This document shows, in pieces, positions 12,090 to 18,322 of a DNA stretch of 56,477 bases. Every line of letters starts with the position of its first letter. Within the stretch, counting starts at the first letter, position 1. Origin of the DNA: a virus (lineage: Duplodnaviria; Caudoviricetes); IMG/VR virus record IMGVR_UViG_3300043173_000175, positions 1 to 56,477 of that record. One strand, given 5' to 3'. Below the pieces are notes generated by a model, which was given only the letters and a program-made list of their open reading frames with translations, made no database searches and was not told the origin of the DNA. Both the position numbers and the translations under genes were made by a program.

Positions 12090-12119
12090 TTGACACCCGG
12101 GCATTCTGTCCGGTAAGGT
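12090..12119 (+). promoter_or_regulatory. sigma70-type promoter of the plus-strand operon with operator-like inverted repeat
   Basis: TTGACA-18 nt-TAAGGT; the spacer holds the imperfect palindrome CGGGCA-TTC-TGTCCG (12098-12112). Confidence 0.7.
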
Positions 12120-12153
12120 CGGAGACCTTCACTTACTACGACAGGCCCCACCC

Positions 12154-12336
12154 ATGAACGAGCACGACATCGCCGGTTTAATCTTCGCCGCCCTTTTCGG
12201 CTGGGCACTTCTAAGGCCACTATTCATGGCCACCACCACATGCCCCGGTCATGGTTCAGACCTGATCGCCGGCACTTGCCCAGATTGCACCATTGAGGCT
12301 GACGACTGGGCCACCACTACGAGGAGCACGACATGA
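12154..12336 (+). CDS. Small protein with N-terminal hydrophobic helix and Cys/His cluster
   Basis: 60 aa first ORF after the promoter; CPGH...CPDC. Confidence 0.45.
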   Translation: MNEHDIAGLIFAALFGWALLRPLFMATTTCPGHGSDLIAGTCPDCTIEADDWATTTRSTT

Positions 12337-12722
12337 GACCAGCACCATGGAACAACGCAGAGAATAGGGCGCTCATCGCTCTATATTTCGCCATGCTTGG
12401 CCGAGCCAAGACTGGCACCGCCTACGTCAAAGCGGCCATGATTCGAAAGGCCCAGAAAAACGACCAACGAACATGGCAACACCCTTACGCCGGCCAGCTC
12501 GAGAAGCGCAGCCGCGGCAGCATCGAGGCCAAGCTAATGAACGCAAGCGCCGCCCATGCAGCGCTCAGGCCAGACGCCGAGACCATGGCGGCCCACGGTT
12601 ACAAAGCATGGGGCAATTATCAGGCTTCACTAAAGGATGCCATGCGCCGCATGATCGAAAGCCGCGAGAGCCAAACCGGCCCCGACTCCGAAAGCCTGCC
12701 AGCTCGTGAGCTGTTCTCGTGA
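12333..12722 (+). CDS. Stand-alone domain resembling the N-terminus of HNH/DUF3883-type endonucleases
   Basis: W...E.......YF.ML, RS.GSIE.K..N.SA and NYQ..L motifs; no nuclease domain. Confidence 0.55.
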   Translation: MRPAPWNNAENRALIALYFAMLGRAKTGTAYVKAAMIRKAQKNDQRTWQHPYAGQLEKRSRGSIEAKLMNASAAHAALRPDAETMAAHGYKAWGNYQASLKDAMRRMIESRESQTGPDSESLPARELFS

Positions 12723-13672
12723 CAGTAGTCACACTCCCACGGCTGGACGTCACCCGGCTGGCTGCAGACTACTCGCAGGCAGTCAGGGAGGCGCTCACCG
12801 CTGGCCAGCTCGAGAAGGTTAGGCGCGGCGATGCCATCGCCGACGATTACACCGACCCGGGCGAGCTGATGGCCGAGGCCATCTATCTACAGCGACCCAA
12901 CGCGGCCAGCATCGCCGACTATGCCGACGACATGACCACGGCCCACGATAGGGCCGAGGCTGCCGGCTGGCACTTGTCGCGCATCCTTATTGCTTGCGAG
13001 TTCTCGGGCACCGTTCGCGATGCTTTCGCGGCTCGAGGTCACAGCGTTATGAGCTGCGACATTCTCGAGACCGAGGCCCCGGGCGCTCACTATGTCGGCG
13101 ATGTTCGCGACGTACTGGCCGATGGCTGGCACCTCGCCGTGATGCACCCACCTTGTACTTATCTCGCAGCCTGCCAGCTCTGGCGCTGTCTGCCGAAACA
13201 TGCAGCCAAGCACCCGGGCCGCGCCGCCAAGAAAGCCGAAGCGCTCGAGTTTATCCGCGATCTAATGGCCGCGCCGATCCCACGCTGGGCGCTCGAGAAT
13301 CCCAAGGGCGCCATCGGTACAGAGATCCGGCCCATGGCGCAGATGATCCAGCCGTATGAATTCGGCCATGACCATTCGAAGCAGACCGGGCTATGGCTCG
13401 AGAACCTGCCGCCCCTTGTCAAGGATCCCGCCCAGTTCATACCGGGCCGCGATGCCATCGACAACAACGGCAACCCCTGCAAACGCTGGGCGAATCAATG
13501 CGACGGCTCAGGCGCCGACCGCATGGGCCCCAGCGCCGACCGCGGCCATAAGCGCTCCCGGTTCTTTGCCGGCATCGCCGACGCCATGGCAGCCCAGTGG
13601 GGCGGCATCGCCGAAACACTGACAGCGCCGGCACACGCGGCGCCCATTGGACAGCTCGAGCTATTCGCATGA
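12719..13672 (+). CDS. Phage DNA cytosine methyltransferase with ~85 aa N-terminal extension
   Basis: LIACEFSG.VR.AF...GH...SCD, HPPCTYL (PC catalytic), ALENP and K.T.LWL motifs. Confidence 0.75.
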   Translation: MTVVTLPRLDVTRLAADYSQAVREALTAGQLEKVRRGDAIADDYTDPGELMAEAIYLQRPNAASIADYADDMTTAHDRAEAAGWHLSRILIACEFSGTVRDAFAARGHSVMSCDILETEAPGAHYVGDVRDVLADGWHLAVMHPPCTYLAACQLWRCLPKHAAKHPGRAAKKAEALEFIRDLMAAPIPRWALENPKGAIGTEIRPMAQMIQPYEFGHDHSKQTGLWLENLPPLVKDPAQFIPGRDAIDNNGNPCKRWANQCDGSGADRMGPSADRGHKRSRFFAGIADAMAAQWGGIAETLTAPAHAAPIGQLELFA

Positions 13673-13676
13673 AATC

Positions 13677-13743
13677 GAGTGACCGCCTCAAGCAGACCGG
13701 GCCCACCATCCTGGGTCTGGCCTGCTTGGGGGGAATCATTCCC
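13677..13743 (+). repeat. Intergenic hairpin repeat, copy 1
   Basis: GAGTGACCGCCTCAAG-[CAGACCGGGCCCA...TGGGTCTGGCCTG]-CTTGGGGGGAATCATTCCC. Confidence 0.95.
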
Positions 13744-13781
13744 CGGGCGCCGTTTGGCGTCATCATTGAAAGGAGCACGAC

Positions 13782-16332: not shown

Positions 16333-16334
16333 GC

Positions 16335-16395
16335 GAGTGACCGCCTCAAGGGCCCGGGGCCGTTTGGCCTCGGATCCTTGGGGGGAATCATTCCC
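16335..16395 (+). repeat. Intergenic hairpin repeat, copy 5 (identical to copy 4)
   Basis: Same 61 bp as 15552-15612. Confidence 0.95.
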
Positions 16396-16416
16396 GCAAC
16401 CAAGGAGCACAAGACC

Positions 16417-16677
16417 ATGAAAAATAACCCGCAATTTGTCAATGGCTGGCAAGCGCCGAGCTATACCGCCAAGATCCAGCGCAGCGCTTATTTGCGCCGG
16501 CTGATTTGGTGGGCGTGGCGCCGCTACTGCCTGAACGAGGACTATTACCGAGTCATTCGGCGATTCACTGGGCCGCGGCCACGTGGCACTAATCAGGTCA
16601 GCACCATCAAGGCCAACGCTACCGCCTTTCGCTACTACATTGAGCCGCGCACTCGCCGGCCATGGGGGGCGGCGTGA
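16417..16677 (+). CDS. Basic hypothetical protein
   Basis: AAGGAG RBS, ATG at 16417. Confidence 0.6.
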   Translation: MKNNPQFVNGWQAPSYTAKIQRSAYLRRLIWWAWRRYCLNEDYYRVIRRFTGPRPRGTNQVSTIKANATAFRYYIEPRTRRPWGAA

Positions 16678-17771
16678 TTACCGTGCAGATCGATTTTCTC
16701 GAGGAGTCATATCTCGAGCGCATCGCCGGCACGGCTAAGCCTGAGGGCTGGCAGCAGCACTTAGCCGCGGCCCAGGGTGCCCCGAGGCCAACGGCTAAGC
16801 CGTCGACGGCCAAGGCCAAGCCGGCCAATAATGACGCGCTCGCCGACAAGCTGGCAGCGCTGGCCGAGGCCATGACCGGCACCGTTGAGGGCAAACTCGC
16901 CGACCGGGAGACCAACACGCCCAAGCGCATGGGGCAGGCCATGAGCGCCCGCGCTGAGGGCGAGCGGCTGGCAAGGGTGCAGGAGGCCCTGCGCCGTTTG
17001 GCTGCGCTTCACAGGGCCGGAGAGTGCCCGCCGAGCCTTTCGAAACTCAAGACGAAAAAGGCCATTTATGAGCTGGTCGGCGAGGAGATGCGGCAGGTTC
17101 CTAACGGCTTCCACACCTACTATGTAGGCACCGGAGAGCCGCGGCAGGGCTCCAGCCCTGAAGCGCTCGAGCTGTGGGCCATGCTCACCGGTAAGAGCGA
17201 CGAGGAGCTGAAGGCCGACAAGATCGCCGAGCTGATGCGCGGCTTGCAGTTCTCGAGCATTCGCGGCTATTTCCCGACGCCGGCACCGCTGGCCGCTCGT
17301 ATGGTAGAGCTGGCCGAGATCGAAGCGCACCATGTAGTACTTGAGCCATCGGCAGGATCCGGGGCCATCCTGGACGCCATCGAAGCGGCCCAGCCTGAGG
17401 CGCTGGCAGTCTGCTGGGAGATCAACCCCACACTCTGCAACGTGCTACAGGCCAAGGGTTACGACGCCCGCCCGGTCGACTGCCTCAGCCACAACGGCAG
17501 CGCGATCTATGACCGTGTTTTGATGAATCCGCCCTTTGAGAACCAGCAGGACATCGATCACGTAATGGGCGCCTTTACCCGGCTAAAACCCGGGGGCCGT
17601 TTGGTGTCGATCATGTCGCCGTCGCCGTTTTTCAGATCCGGCAAGAAGGCCGAGGAGTTCCGCGCTTGGTTCGAGGAGCTGGGCGGCACGGCTGAAGATC
17701 TACCGTCTGGCACCTTCAAGGAGGCCGGCACCGGAGTCGAGAGCAAACTAATCACAATCGAAAAGGAGTAA
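16674..17771 (+). CDS. Amino-type (N6-adenine-like) SAM-dependent DNA methyltransferase with helical N-terminal domain
   Basis: YFPTP, VLEPSAGSG, NPPF and LKPGGRLVSI motifs. Confidence 0.8.
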   Translation: MITVQIDFLEESYLERIAGTAKPEGWQQHLAAAQGAPRPTAKPSTAKAKPANNDALADKLAALAEAMTGTVEGKLADRETNTPKRMGQAMSARAEGERLARVQEALRRLAALHRAGECPPSLSKLKTKKAIYELVGEEMRQVPNGFHTYYVGTGEPRQGSSPEALELWAMLTGKSDEELKADKIAELMRGLQFSSIRGYFPTPAPLAARMVELAEIEAHHVVLEPSAGSGAILDAIEAAQPEALAVCWEINPTLCNVLQAKGYDARPVDCLSHNGSAIYDRVLMNPPFENQQDIDHVMGAFTRLKPGGRLVSIMSPSPFFRSGKKAEEFRAWFEELGGTAEDLPSGTFKEAGTGVESKLITIEKE

Positions 17772-17774
17772 ACC

Positions 17775-18119
17775 ATGCACGTGAAAATTGACAGCCAGGA
17801 TAGAAACACCATTCTCGCCGCCCTTCGGACATACCAAGCCGCGGGCTACGGCGAGCCATGCAATCGACCGCTACCGATCCACGACATAGCCACAAATATG
17901 GATTGCGAGATCTCCATGGATGCTGCCGGCATTGACGACCTATGCGAGCGGCTTAATTGTGACTGTAACGAGCCCAGCGCCGGCACCATGGGCGAGCTAT
18001 TCGCGGGCCTGCGTGAGGACTTCGCTCTGCTGGAGTCTGGCGAGTGGGTGCCTGATACCGACTCAATACAGGCATCGGTCGACGCTCTCGACGAGATCGA
18101 GAGGAGGTGCTCAGGGTGA
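17775..18119 (+). CDS. Acidic hypothetical protein directly upstream of the aca1-like gene
   Basis: 114 aa, AAGGAG RBS, D/E-rich. Confidence 0.65.
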   Translation: MHVKIDSQDRNTILAALRTYQAAGYGEPCNRPLPIHDIATNMDCEISMDAAGIDDLCERLNCDCNEPSAGTMGELFAGLREDFALLESGEWVPDTDSIQASVDALDEIERRCSG

Positions 18120-18322
18120 GGCCTAACGCTGCCACCGACTACAACCCCAGCCCGGTCTATATGGCCGAGCTGGTGGAGTCGACCGGACTGAGCCAAAAAA
18201 AAATCGGGTCGATCCTGGGCGTTAATGAGCGCACCGTGAGGCGCTGGGTTACTGGGGCCAGTACGGCGCCCTACGTGGTGCAGTTCTGCCTCGAGGTGCT
18301 GGTGCTTAGCCCGGAAGGATGA
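18116..18322 (+). CDS. aca1: Aca1-like HTH transcriptional repressor
   Basis: PNA...NP.P.Y...L....GLSQ......LG...R..R and APY.VQF.LE.L match my recollection of Pseudomonas phage Aca1; last gene of the operon. Confidence 0.7.
   Translation: MRPNAATDYNPSPVYMAELVESTGLSQKKIGSILGVNERTVRRWVTGASTAPYVVQFCLEVLVLSPEG

Follow-up and report, generated by a model that had tools for sequence, protein, structure and literature searches.

The early operon of phage T7 is transcribed by the host polymerase, carries related, long and irregular intercistronic hairpins that serve as RNase III sites, and includes an anti-restriction gene. Aca proteins, for their part, serve as beacons for new anti-defence genes, and the slot immediately upstream of aca is the usual position of an anti-CRISPR (acr) gene. 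The Aca1 protein of phage JBD30 is described as binding the operator GGCAC-AAT-GTGCC, with Arg44 and Arg47 contacting the half-site GG and Arg47 reading the first G, and its R44A, R47A, and R59A mutants as having lost binding (PMC8633003). A 2026 paper further reports that Aca1 binds a hairpin located in the acr-aca1 mRNA's 5' untranslated region (UTR), and that predicted Aca RNA motifs also occur between adjacent genes within operons (PMC13551039). The subject here is an operon of 15 co-oriented genes (12154–18322, + strand) in the complete virus record IMGVR_UViG_3300043173_000175 (Duplodnaviria; Caudoviricetes; 56,477 bases, the whole of which was analysed and is referred to as the window), which is headed by a predicted promoter with inverted repeats, closed by a gene of the Aca1 family, and punctuated by five copies of a hairpin. 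The locus is best described as a hypervariable accessory operon of the counter-defence type, the role of its cargo being suggested by genetic context, and is probably explained as an Aca1-autoregulated operon of this type with intercistronic hairpins in its mRNA.

The five copies of the hairpin, with their covariance model scores, are:

13677–13742, + strand, hairpin repeat 1 (67.8 bits)
14380–14436, + strand, hairpin repeat 2 (67.1 bits)
14959–15015, + strand, hairpin repeat 3 (71.1 bits)
15552–15611, + strand, hairpin repeat 4 (72.7 bits)
16335–16394, + strand, hairpin repeat 5 (71.5 bits)

Successive copies start 703, 579, 593, and 783 nt apart, and each of the five folds as a long hairpin. 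The 19-mer common to them was counted five times in the forward direction in the 56.5-kb genome and not at all in reverse (n = 0) or as a reversed-pattern control (n = 0); the covariance model found no further copy elsewhere in the window, and all copies are oriented with the operon. The element measures 50–70 nt and consists of a 6-bp basal helix in which one G.U pair never varies, an asymmetric bulge region that is conserved, and a long upper stem. Its base is conserved (GAGUGAYCGC ... GGGAAUCAUUCC; DNA consensus: head GAGTGAYCGC, tail GGGAATCATTCC), while the sequence of the long upper stem is free to vary with the pairing kept and the tip is variable; the consensus comprises 21 pairs, to which the variable tip adds more. 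Over a 67-nt stretch that takes in the variable stem, repeats 4 and 5 share 99% identity, suggesting a recent duplication or conversion.

Relatives were collected from viral and metagenome contigs (loci designated L) using the small terminase and a degenerate head-gap-tail pattern. The exact 19-mer and a first gapped pattern had given no match or two chance matches only in IMG/VR, and relatives found via the second methyltransferase of the operon (L006–L010) carried no such repeats. Three matches in bacterial genomes (L032–L034) were rejected as chance (23.5–27.8 bits, no convincing stem) and identified no host. In an independent MAFFT alignment of 19 copies, compensatory changes occurred in 13 of the 21 pairs. 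The covariance model built from these 19 copies returned 44 matches (40 distinct), in which 93.5% of 827 cells were paired compared to 74.2% in shuffles (0 of 500 shuffles equalled it) and 36.5–47.0% in slid controls; the 44-match alignment was fitted to the model and leans toward structure, though the independent 19-copy alignment agrees with it. Among the 40 distinct copies, 15 of the 21 pairs change on both sides. The basal helix (GAGUGA/UCAUUC), with its invariant G.U pair, shows rare double changes that keep pairing, and is further supported by a diverged subfamily from which one base has been lost on each side. An alternative local 5-bp hairpin in the palindromic tail was tried and rejected (0/5 pairs compensatory, no better than shuffles).

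The sense strand was the more stable in 39 of 40 copies (mean, −34.0 versus −23.8 kcal/mol), 117 paired cells are G.U, and all strong matches share the orientation of the operon. Together the sense-strand bias in folding and the G.U pairs point to a fold selected on the transcript. The element is most likely a structured, sense-strand RNA that acts as RNA, and its assignment as an RNA-level cis-element is very probable. Rfam gave no match at gathering score over the whole window, and at E ≤ 5 over 11900–18700 a single chance-level snoRNA match outside the repeats; a literature search for the head and tail strings returned, among the matches listed, unrelated non-phage topics only. The hairpin is thus most likely a new, well-supported structured RNA motif, though it may overlap with one of the unnamed motifs of the 2026 report (PMC13551039). 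The diverged subfamily was seen in locus L069 (head GGUGAC.CAC, tail GGGAAUCAUCCC; basal helix one base shorter on each side), with copies at 2500–2554, 3929–3981, 6571–6623, and 6813–6865, one of them 5' of the gene for a 129-aa protein that is also present in the window.

Placement of the hairpin between cistrons is strict. In 40 of 43 distinct contexts, an upstream open reading frame (ORF) of at least 40 codons ends within −4 to +6 of the hairpin's first base, the three exceptions being one 7-codon ORF and two copies at contig ends; 30 of those 40 stops are TGA and 28 are built with nucleotides of the head. A start codon led by a Shine-Dalgarno (SD) sequence follows in 42 of the 43 contexts, at a distance of 15–27 nt in 19 cases and 37–45 nt in 21, with two outliers, and no U tract of the terminator type lies 3' of the hairpins. 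With a stop at the head and an SD-led start beyond the tail, the element therefore forms an intercistronic joint of stop, hairpin, and ribosome-binding site. The hairpin is always found at the 3' end of some gene families (92-aa family, 5/5 loci) and never at that of others (220-aa family, 0/7).

Behind about half of the main hairpins lies another, smaller one (in the window, 13746–13761 and 15019–15034), reading GGCGCC-GUUU-GGCGUC in the window and GGUCCC-AAUGC-GGGACC in relatives; by eye, a second hairpin of varying sequence is held by the class with a 37–45 nt distance. In repeats 4 and 5, a GGGGCC-GUUU-GGCCUC unit instead makes up the main hairpin's tip, which looks like a rearrangement of modules. 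Selenocysteine incorporation or read-through at the head UGA was considered and rejected, as 10 of the 40 upstream stops are TAG or TAA and, in the one pair inspected by hand, the downstream gene at 14458 is read in a different frame from the gene at 14103. A mimic of CRISPR repeats was likewise set aside: the stems vary freely and the element is unlike such repeats, though no search was aimed at this possibility.

The features that frame the operon are:

12090–12119, + strand, sigma-70-type promoter, read directly (−35 TTGACA at 12090–12095, 18-nt spacer, −10 TAAGGT at 12114–12119)
12099–12111, unstranded, inverted repeat A (IR-A), GGGCA-TTC-TGTCC, imperfect 5-3-5 with one mismatch, lying within the promoter spacer; a candidate operator for the Aca1-like repressor
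12115–12129, unstranded, inverted repeat B (IR-B), AAGGTC-GGA-GACCTT, overlapping the −10 and the likely start site; spotted by eye only
18116–18322, + strand, Aca1-family helix-turn-helix (HTH) gene, 68 aa from the GTG at 18116 (longest ORF from 18107); PDB 7c0g, Pfam HTH_23

The GTG start of the terminal gene overlaps the upstream stop (GTGA), with a GGAGG 8 nt upstream. Its product matched solved Aca1 along its full length (PDB 7c0g, E = 2.2e-8, residues 7–69 of 71 aligned), and a profile of 12 relatives matched Aca1 at E = 1e-18, with Aca7 the next best at 0.0016. Using tblastn against cultured phages, 127 of 128 matches fell in Pseudomonas phages, several beside annotated anti-CRISPR genes, with identities of 37–40% in the 15 matches listed. 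The Arg44 and Arg47 residues of JBD30 Aca1 are conserved in the alignment as R42 and R45. By these comparisons the last gene is a true Aca1-family member, and its product probably represses its own operon promoter via the 5-3-5 repeat(s).

The same layout of −35, inverted repeat in the spacer, and −10 occurs once per phage in every relative whose contig extends to the region. IR-A, like the promoter repeats of the clade in general, has the 5-3-5, GG...CC geometry of the JBD30 Aca1 operator (operator as given in PMC8633003), and a repeat identical to IR-B is present in L013, the other subclade having TGGCC-NNN-GGCCA at that site. Across related phages the half-site class of the operator tracks the class of the recognition helix (10/10), with GGRCM paired with the Aca1-like helix ..RT.RRW in six phages and GGAAA paired with ..DK..RNW in four, an agreement that fits Aca1-like autoregulation. 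A 5' UTR hairpin akin to the published Aca1 RNA motif was unsupported in the window (fold z-score, −0.47). Within the Aca1-like gene, a run of nine A (18195–18203; Q-K-K-I codons) could be prone to slippage and thereby turn off the repressor; at the protein level, KK is also encoded at this position in relatives.

A preliminary description of this DNA had pictured a promoter with an inverted repeat driving about 17 co-oriented genes, opposite in strand to both flanks, divided by five hairpin repeats, and ending in an HTH gene of the Aca1 type. This architecture holds. IR-A lies between the −35 and the −10, the five repeats are borne out by the 19-mer count, the folding, and the covariance model (67–73 bits), the terminal HTH by its Pfam match, the Aca1 assignment by the PDB, profile, and cultured-phage matches, and both flanks lie on the − strand (the small terminase on one side, a 107-aa ORF and a nuclease on the other); the number of co-oriented genes, however, was revised to 15. 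These genes have a GC content at third positions and a codon bias of the coding type, and their SD sites are mostly good.

To assess conservation of the cargo, 13 cargo and frame proteins were searched by tblastn against 50 related loci, which include duplicate views of the same contig. The genes upstream of the Aca1-like gene are:

12154–12336, + strand, 60-aa ORF containing Cys pairs and a hydrophobic stretch; one other phage contig has a partial relative (L030/L062), no family match
12333–12722, + strand, 129-aa conserved protein, always immediately 5' of methyltransferase 1; 18/50 loci
12719–13672, + strand, DNA methyltransferase 1, 317 aa, core gene; phrog_757, E = 2.9e-51; 22/50 loci
13782–14099, + strand, 105-aa protein with a partial ArdC N-terminal (single-stranded DNA-binding) domain; PF08401, E = 5.7e-9; phrog_7245
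14103–14381, + strand, 92-aa ORF, its stop codon overlapping the hairpin 2 head; hairpin 3' of the family in 5/5 loci
14458–14619, + strand, 53-aa hydrophobic ORF; relatives in 2 loci
14616–14960, + strand, 114-aa orphan ORF; 0/50 loci, no family match
15055–15549, + strand, 164-aa ORF; phrog_37844 (annotated function unknown), E = 3.6e-8; relatives in 4 loci
15630–15890, + strand, 86-aa ORF overlapping the next ORF; 0/50 loci, no family match
15887–16132, + strand, 81-aa ORF overlapping both neighbours; 1/50 loci, no family match
16129–16332, + strand, 67-aa ORF overlapping the preceding ORF; 0/50 loci, no family match
16417–16677, + strand, 86-aa ORF 3' of hairpin 5; relatives in 6 loci, no family match
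16662–17771, + strand, DNA methyltransferase 2, 369 aa; phrog_15406, E = 1.7e-64; relatives in 7 loci
17775–18119, + strand, 114-aa acidic orphan ORF directly 5' of the Aca1-like gene; 0/50 loci

Methyltransferase 1 was the most widespread protein (22 loci), along with the Aca1-like protein (20), the 129-aa protein (18), and methyltransferase 2 (7), while none of the 50 loci had a match to five of the 13 proteins, namely four of the small ORFs and the ArdC-N-like protein. The frame that is conserved runs from the promoter through the 129-aa protein and methyltransferase 1 to variable cargo and the Aca1-like gene. In the closest relative (81% identity in structural genes), DNA homology ends at repeat 1 and returns only at the 92-aa gene before repeat 2 and at the Aca1-like gene, and gene orders among relatives are mosaic. 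The cargo is nearly wholly different between related phages, as in known counter-defence clusters, and the gene content between the repeats, which the preliminary description had proposed to compare among relatives, is not invariant. Hairpins join one upstream family to four different partner families downstream and, conversely, one downstream family to six different partners upstream. A family of 220–235 aa that is absent from the window is frequent cargo, often one or two genes 5' of the Aca1-like gene, and has a hairpin directly 5' in seven of eight loci (L013, L040, L045, L046, L050, L052, and L059).

The distribution of this variability was explored over 133 junctions in 23 operon maps, 38 of them with a hairpin, using gene calls and family strings that were partly curated by hand (the 53-aa ORF of the window was added; one 59-aa ORF of L024, antisense ORFs outside the operons, L029, and L037 were dropped). 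With the core gene pair included, neighbours were conserved in 3 of 40 cases at hairpins versus 54 of 138 elsewhere. With the core pair excluded, the values were 3 of 40 locus pairs at hairpin junctions versus 9 of 93 at junctions without one (Fisher p = 1.0), so that the difference came almost wholly from one invariant gene pair and shuffling is not concentrated at hairpins. The tyrosine recombinase profile PF00589, which was found in 14 of 14 control genomes, finds no integrase across the whole 56.5-kb genome. The core sites of attC read RYYYAAC/GTTRRRY, and by eye neither the head nor the tail of the hairpin matches this consensus; lacking both an integrase and an attC-like core, an integron-like array was therefore rejected. 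Exchange of cargo via the repeats, as proposed in the preliminary description, is accordingly not supported, and would be a minor or secondary role. The companion proposal, in which the repeats serve to process or regulate the cargo, agrees with the evidence for RNA structure on the sense strand.

The two orphan methyltransferases that had been recognised in the operon were both recovered (phrog_757 and phrog_15406). Methyltransferase 1 had no match in Pfam or NCBIfam; the C-terminal half of methyltransferase 2 is an NPPF-type methylase domain and its N-terminal half is unassigned, with Pfam methyltransferase matches below the cut-off. The ArdC assignment held in part: PF08401 covers residues 41–90 of the 105-aa protein (profile positions 63–114 of 123), and the protein matches phrog_7245 ('anti-restriction protein', E = 1.7e-10), but the N-domain is incomplete and no second domain was found, so that the C-terminal metalloprotease domain of ArdC was not encountered and the protein is fragment-like rather than a complete two-domain ArdC. 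The 129-aa protein has a weak, sub-threshold Pfam match only, and its structural leads in the Atlas are N-terminal domains of HNH_2 and restriction-enzyme proteins at low confidence. Ten small ORFs have no match in Pfam, PHROGs, NCBIfam, or PDB sequences, save for one PHROG annotated as function unknown. The acidic 114-aa ORF at 17775–18119, which occupies the slot directly 5' of the Aca1-like gene and has no family, no meaningful PDB match, and low-confidence Atlas leads only, is only a candidate anti-CRISPR. Several operon genes have a conserved ribosome-binding and spacer motif before them, (A/G)AGGAGCAC(G/A)ACATG (12321–12335, 13770–13784, 14446–14460, and 15618–15632), one of these genes being without a preceding hairpin, and relatives carry a kindred motif, GCGAGGAAA...ATG.

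As proposed here, a host-type sigma-70 promoter would transcribe the whole accessory operon, and an Aca1-family protein would bind the 5-3-5 repeat(s) of the promoter and repress it. The hairpins would mark sites where the long transcript is cut or protected, through which each cistron group would obtain a stable message to itself, with its start of translation insulated, as at the RNase III sites of the T7 early operon. Like a site of the T7 type, the element is an intercistronic hairpin that spans about two turns of helix and contains an internal loop (21 consensus pairs and the bulge region). By this analogy, mRNA processing, stability, or translational insulation is put forward tentatively as the role of the hairpin, at somewhat short of an even chance.

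Several observations weigh against this account. For the hairpin, conservation of the base exceeds the known requirement of RNase III and therefore points to a more specific partner, no RNase III gene is encoded by the phage, and a search of sequencing runs that found the window sequence in one DNA run, a marine-sediment metagenome from which it may derive, listed no RNA run that contains it. For the promoter, the −10 TAAGGT is a weak hexamer that matches at only 3 of 6 positions, for which reason a simple promoter scan did not list the site at 12090–12119, and IR-A is the least perfect promoter repeat in the clade. For the repressor, Tyr48 of JBD30 Aca1 is replaced by Arg, Arg59 is not conserved and its loop is five residues shorter here, and the association between helix and operator may stem from a single evolutionary split. 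For the cargo, the upstream ORFs matched none of the known anti-CRISPR or anti-defence families in Pfam, PHROGs, NCBIfam, and PDB sequences, the partial ArdC-N domain is the sole cargo match to a known anti-defence family, and methyltransferases can serve ends other than counter-defence. With that one partial exception, no ORF matches a known anti-CRISPR or anti-defence family, so the label 'anti-defence' given in the preliminary description rests on context.

The main rival explanation would make the hairpins RNA operators, each bound by the Aca1-like or another phage protein that represses translation of the next cistron. The Aca1 binding reported for a 5' UTR hairpin and the intergenic Aca motifs keep this explanation alive (PMC13551039); in its favour, too, hairpins and an Aca1-like gene are both present in every phage of the clade whose contig reaches far enough, the sole hairpin of L019 lies directly 5' of its Aca1-like gene, and the tail GGGAA-UCA-UUCCC shares the 5-3-5 form of the promoter repeats. 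It is nevertheless unlikely. The hairpin consensus is the same in both classes of Aca1-like helix while the promoter repeat differs by class, which argues against that helix reading the hairpin; covariation backs the long hairpin rather than the competing, operator-mimicking 5-bp local one (0/5 compensatory); the element is far larger than the ~20-nt Aca1 motif as described (PMC13551039); and the ribosome-binding site lies outside the hairpin. By distribution, the hairpin was present in 12 of 14 loci with close Aca1-like genes and in diverged form in a thirteenth, compared to 0 of 32 loci with distant Aca1-like genes, though those 13 loci apparently form one clade (checked for eight), so that co-occurrence does not separate the possible partners. 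L030 retains hairpins and has no match to methyltransferase 1 or the 129-aa protein, neither of which is therefore needed. A more speculative proposal, and a decidedly improbable one, is that the hairpin is a portable expression adaptor common to the entire clade of marine podoviruses, by which any gene landing in the operon would gain a common stop-hairpin-SD joint and one trans-acting factor would read all of them, be it a host nuclease or the Aca1-family protein at the RNA level. If so, one small repressor could control transcription of the operon as well as what becomes of each cistron in a freely exchangeable counter-defence set.

Were the repeats instead recombination modules for cassette swaps between co-infecting phages, like T4-type PeSLs or integron attC, the hypervariable cargo, the joining of one upstream family to four downstream and of one downstream family to six upstream via the hairpin, the near-identity of repeats 4 and 5 (99% over 67 nt), and the Erf-like single-strand annealing protein encoded by the phage would be in keeping, as would the precedent of PeSLs (PMC2839356). 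Such a role is quite improbable, as neighbour conservation does not differ at hairpins (3/40 versus 9/93), the genome lacks a tyrosine recombinase, and the element carries neither a promoter nor a U-tract terminator, unlike a PeSL. Further, the compensatory changes and sense-strand G.U bias indicate selection on the folded strand, which would be superfluous for homology-driven exchange, and the head and tail are unlike attC cores. An action on transcription, as an attenuator, a pause site, or an antitermination RNA resembling HK022 put or lambda nut, would suit a structure on the sense strand, repeated copies along one long transcription unit, and the two-hairpin layout in about half of the copies; it is highly doubtful with no U tract 3' of the hairpins, no antiterminator protein found, and the strict stop-codon placement (40/43) pointing to translation or mRNA ends and not to the polymerase. 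Extremely improbable is a DNA site at the 13-nt palindrome GGGAATCATTCCC, either an extruded promoter for an N4-like virion RNA polymerase or an extra operator. N4 early promoters have a 5-bp stem and a 3-nt loop, the form of this palindrome, and the genome holds an N4 gp49-family gene and very large virion-type proteins (phrog_9880), but none of the large proteins was recognisable as an RNA polymerase, covariation is lacking in the local hairpin, the palindrome stays the same across variation in the Aca1-like helix, and the conserved feature is the long sense-strand hairpin with its G.U pairs.

The genes immediately flanking the operon are:

11344–12030, − strand, Sf6-type small terminase, left flank
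18306–18629, − strand, 107-aa ORF, right flank; no known family, kept in 17 related loci
18754–19203, − strand, RecA-dependent nuclease, right flank, beyond the 107-aa ORF

The − strand block on the right consists of the 107-aa ORF, the RecA-dependent nuclease, a DUF1064 protein, and a helicase. The 3' ends of the Aca1-like gene and the convergent 107-aa ORF overlap by 17 nt (18306–18322), and the scan listed no terminator-like site between the two genes. Elsewhere, the genome encodes a T7-type head-tail connector, a large terminase, tail-fibre paralogues, the Erf-like single-strand annealing protein (29483–30589), and several very large uncharacterised proteins. The Erf-like protein could promote the short-homology recombination behind the mosaic operon. 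The portal protein shares no more than 26.8% identity with its counterpart in any cultured phage, Pelagibacter and Vibrio podoviruses being the nearest, megablast of the operon against cultured phages gave zero matches, and no tRNA was found in a tRNA search. The phage is a lytic-type podovirus of marine sediment and a member of a clade of uncultured podoviruses.

Several further features of the genomes were observed. ORFs of 1625 and 864 aa (41133–46010 and 51236–53830, − strand) match different parts of the 2231-position phrog_9880 and have no meaningful PDB sequence match. A 158-nt direct repeat (38004–38161 and 40014–40171; 76% identical) lies in two neighbouring tail-fibre-like genes (37315–38709 and 38719–40539), which are probably paralogous receptor-binding proteins. 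In L007, an unrelated phage found via methyltransferase 2, tandem arrays occur at 14213–14467 and 3586–3761 (a 15-nt unit in at least 12 copies; a 24-nt unit in 6 copies).

Here an Aca1-family gene is the last of 15 in an operon of uncultured marine podoviruses, a group far from Pseudomonas. Across relatives, dozens of uncharacterised families occupy the variable slots, a list of candidates to be screened for counter-defence activity. The hairpin is a simple system in which to study the expression of long gene arrays newly acquired by phages and might be of use as a compact intercistronic part for synthetic operons. Gene units bounded by repeats in a phage, moreover, need not imply that the repeats drive gene exchange.

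Compared to known systems, the operon resembles an integron array in having promoterless small genes of the same orientation with one promoter at the head of the array, and the element resembles attC in being an imperfect hairpin 3' of genes with a conserved base and a variable tip, often overlapping a stop codon. Unlike integron arrays, it has no integrase and no attC core, folds on the sense strand with many G.U pairs, and shows exchange that is not centred on the repeats. T4-type PeSLs are likewise repeated stem-loops in a hyperplastic region of small ORFans that differs between close relatives, but are described as an early promoter with a terminator stem-loop (PMC2839356), neither of which was listed at any of the five window repeats, and gene shuffling in the clade is not enriched at the element. 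The SAS/ESAS of Cluster K mycobacteriophages are similar in that a motif at translation starts is preceded by an inverted repeat in about half of cases, with a variable spacer, a single orientation, and confinement to non-structural genes; they differ in that the sequence and host group are unrelated and the ESAS arms are 17 bp with spacers of 4–13 nt, and the account of them as seen in that paper reports no tie to stop codons or an Aca gene (PMC3203893). Like the RNA motifs described as bound by Aca2 and Aca1, which also occur between genes, the hairpin is a covarying RNA in an Aca-regulated operon, though the Aca1 motif is given there as a ~20-nt inverted repeat just past the transcription start, whereas the window element spans 50–70 nt, starts at a stop codon, and is the same whichever class of Aca1-like recognition helix is present (PMC13551039).

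The JBD30-type acr-aca1 operons of Pseudomonas phages share with the window an Aca1-family HTH gene in last place, 5-3-5 GG...CC repeats in the promoter, the Arg residues that read GG, and a small acidic orphan ORF directly 5' of aca. Those operons have 2–4 genes and lie in Mu-like temperate phages, while the window operon has 15 genes over 6.2 kb with five intercistronic hairpins, a different operator half-site, and no recognisable anti-CRISPR gene, and adjoins the small terminase of a lytic-type marine podovirus. Compared to the RNase III sites of T7, the base sequence of the window element is far more conserved, the hairpin begins exactly at the stop codon, and cleavage is here a proposal; the two nevertheless share several long, irregular intercistronic hairpins, each composed of a lower stem, an internal loop, and an upper stem.

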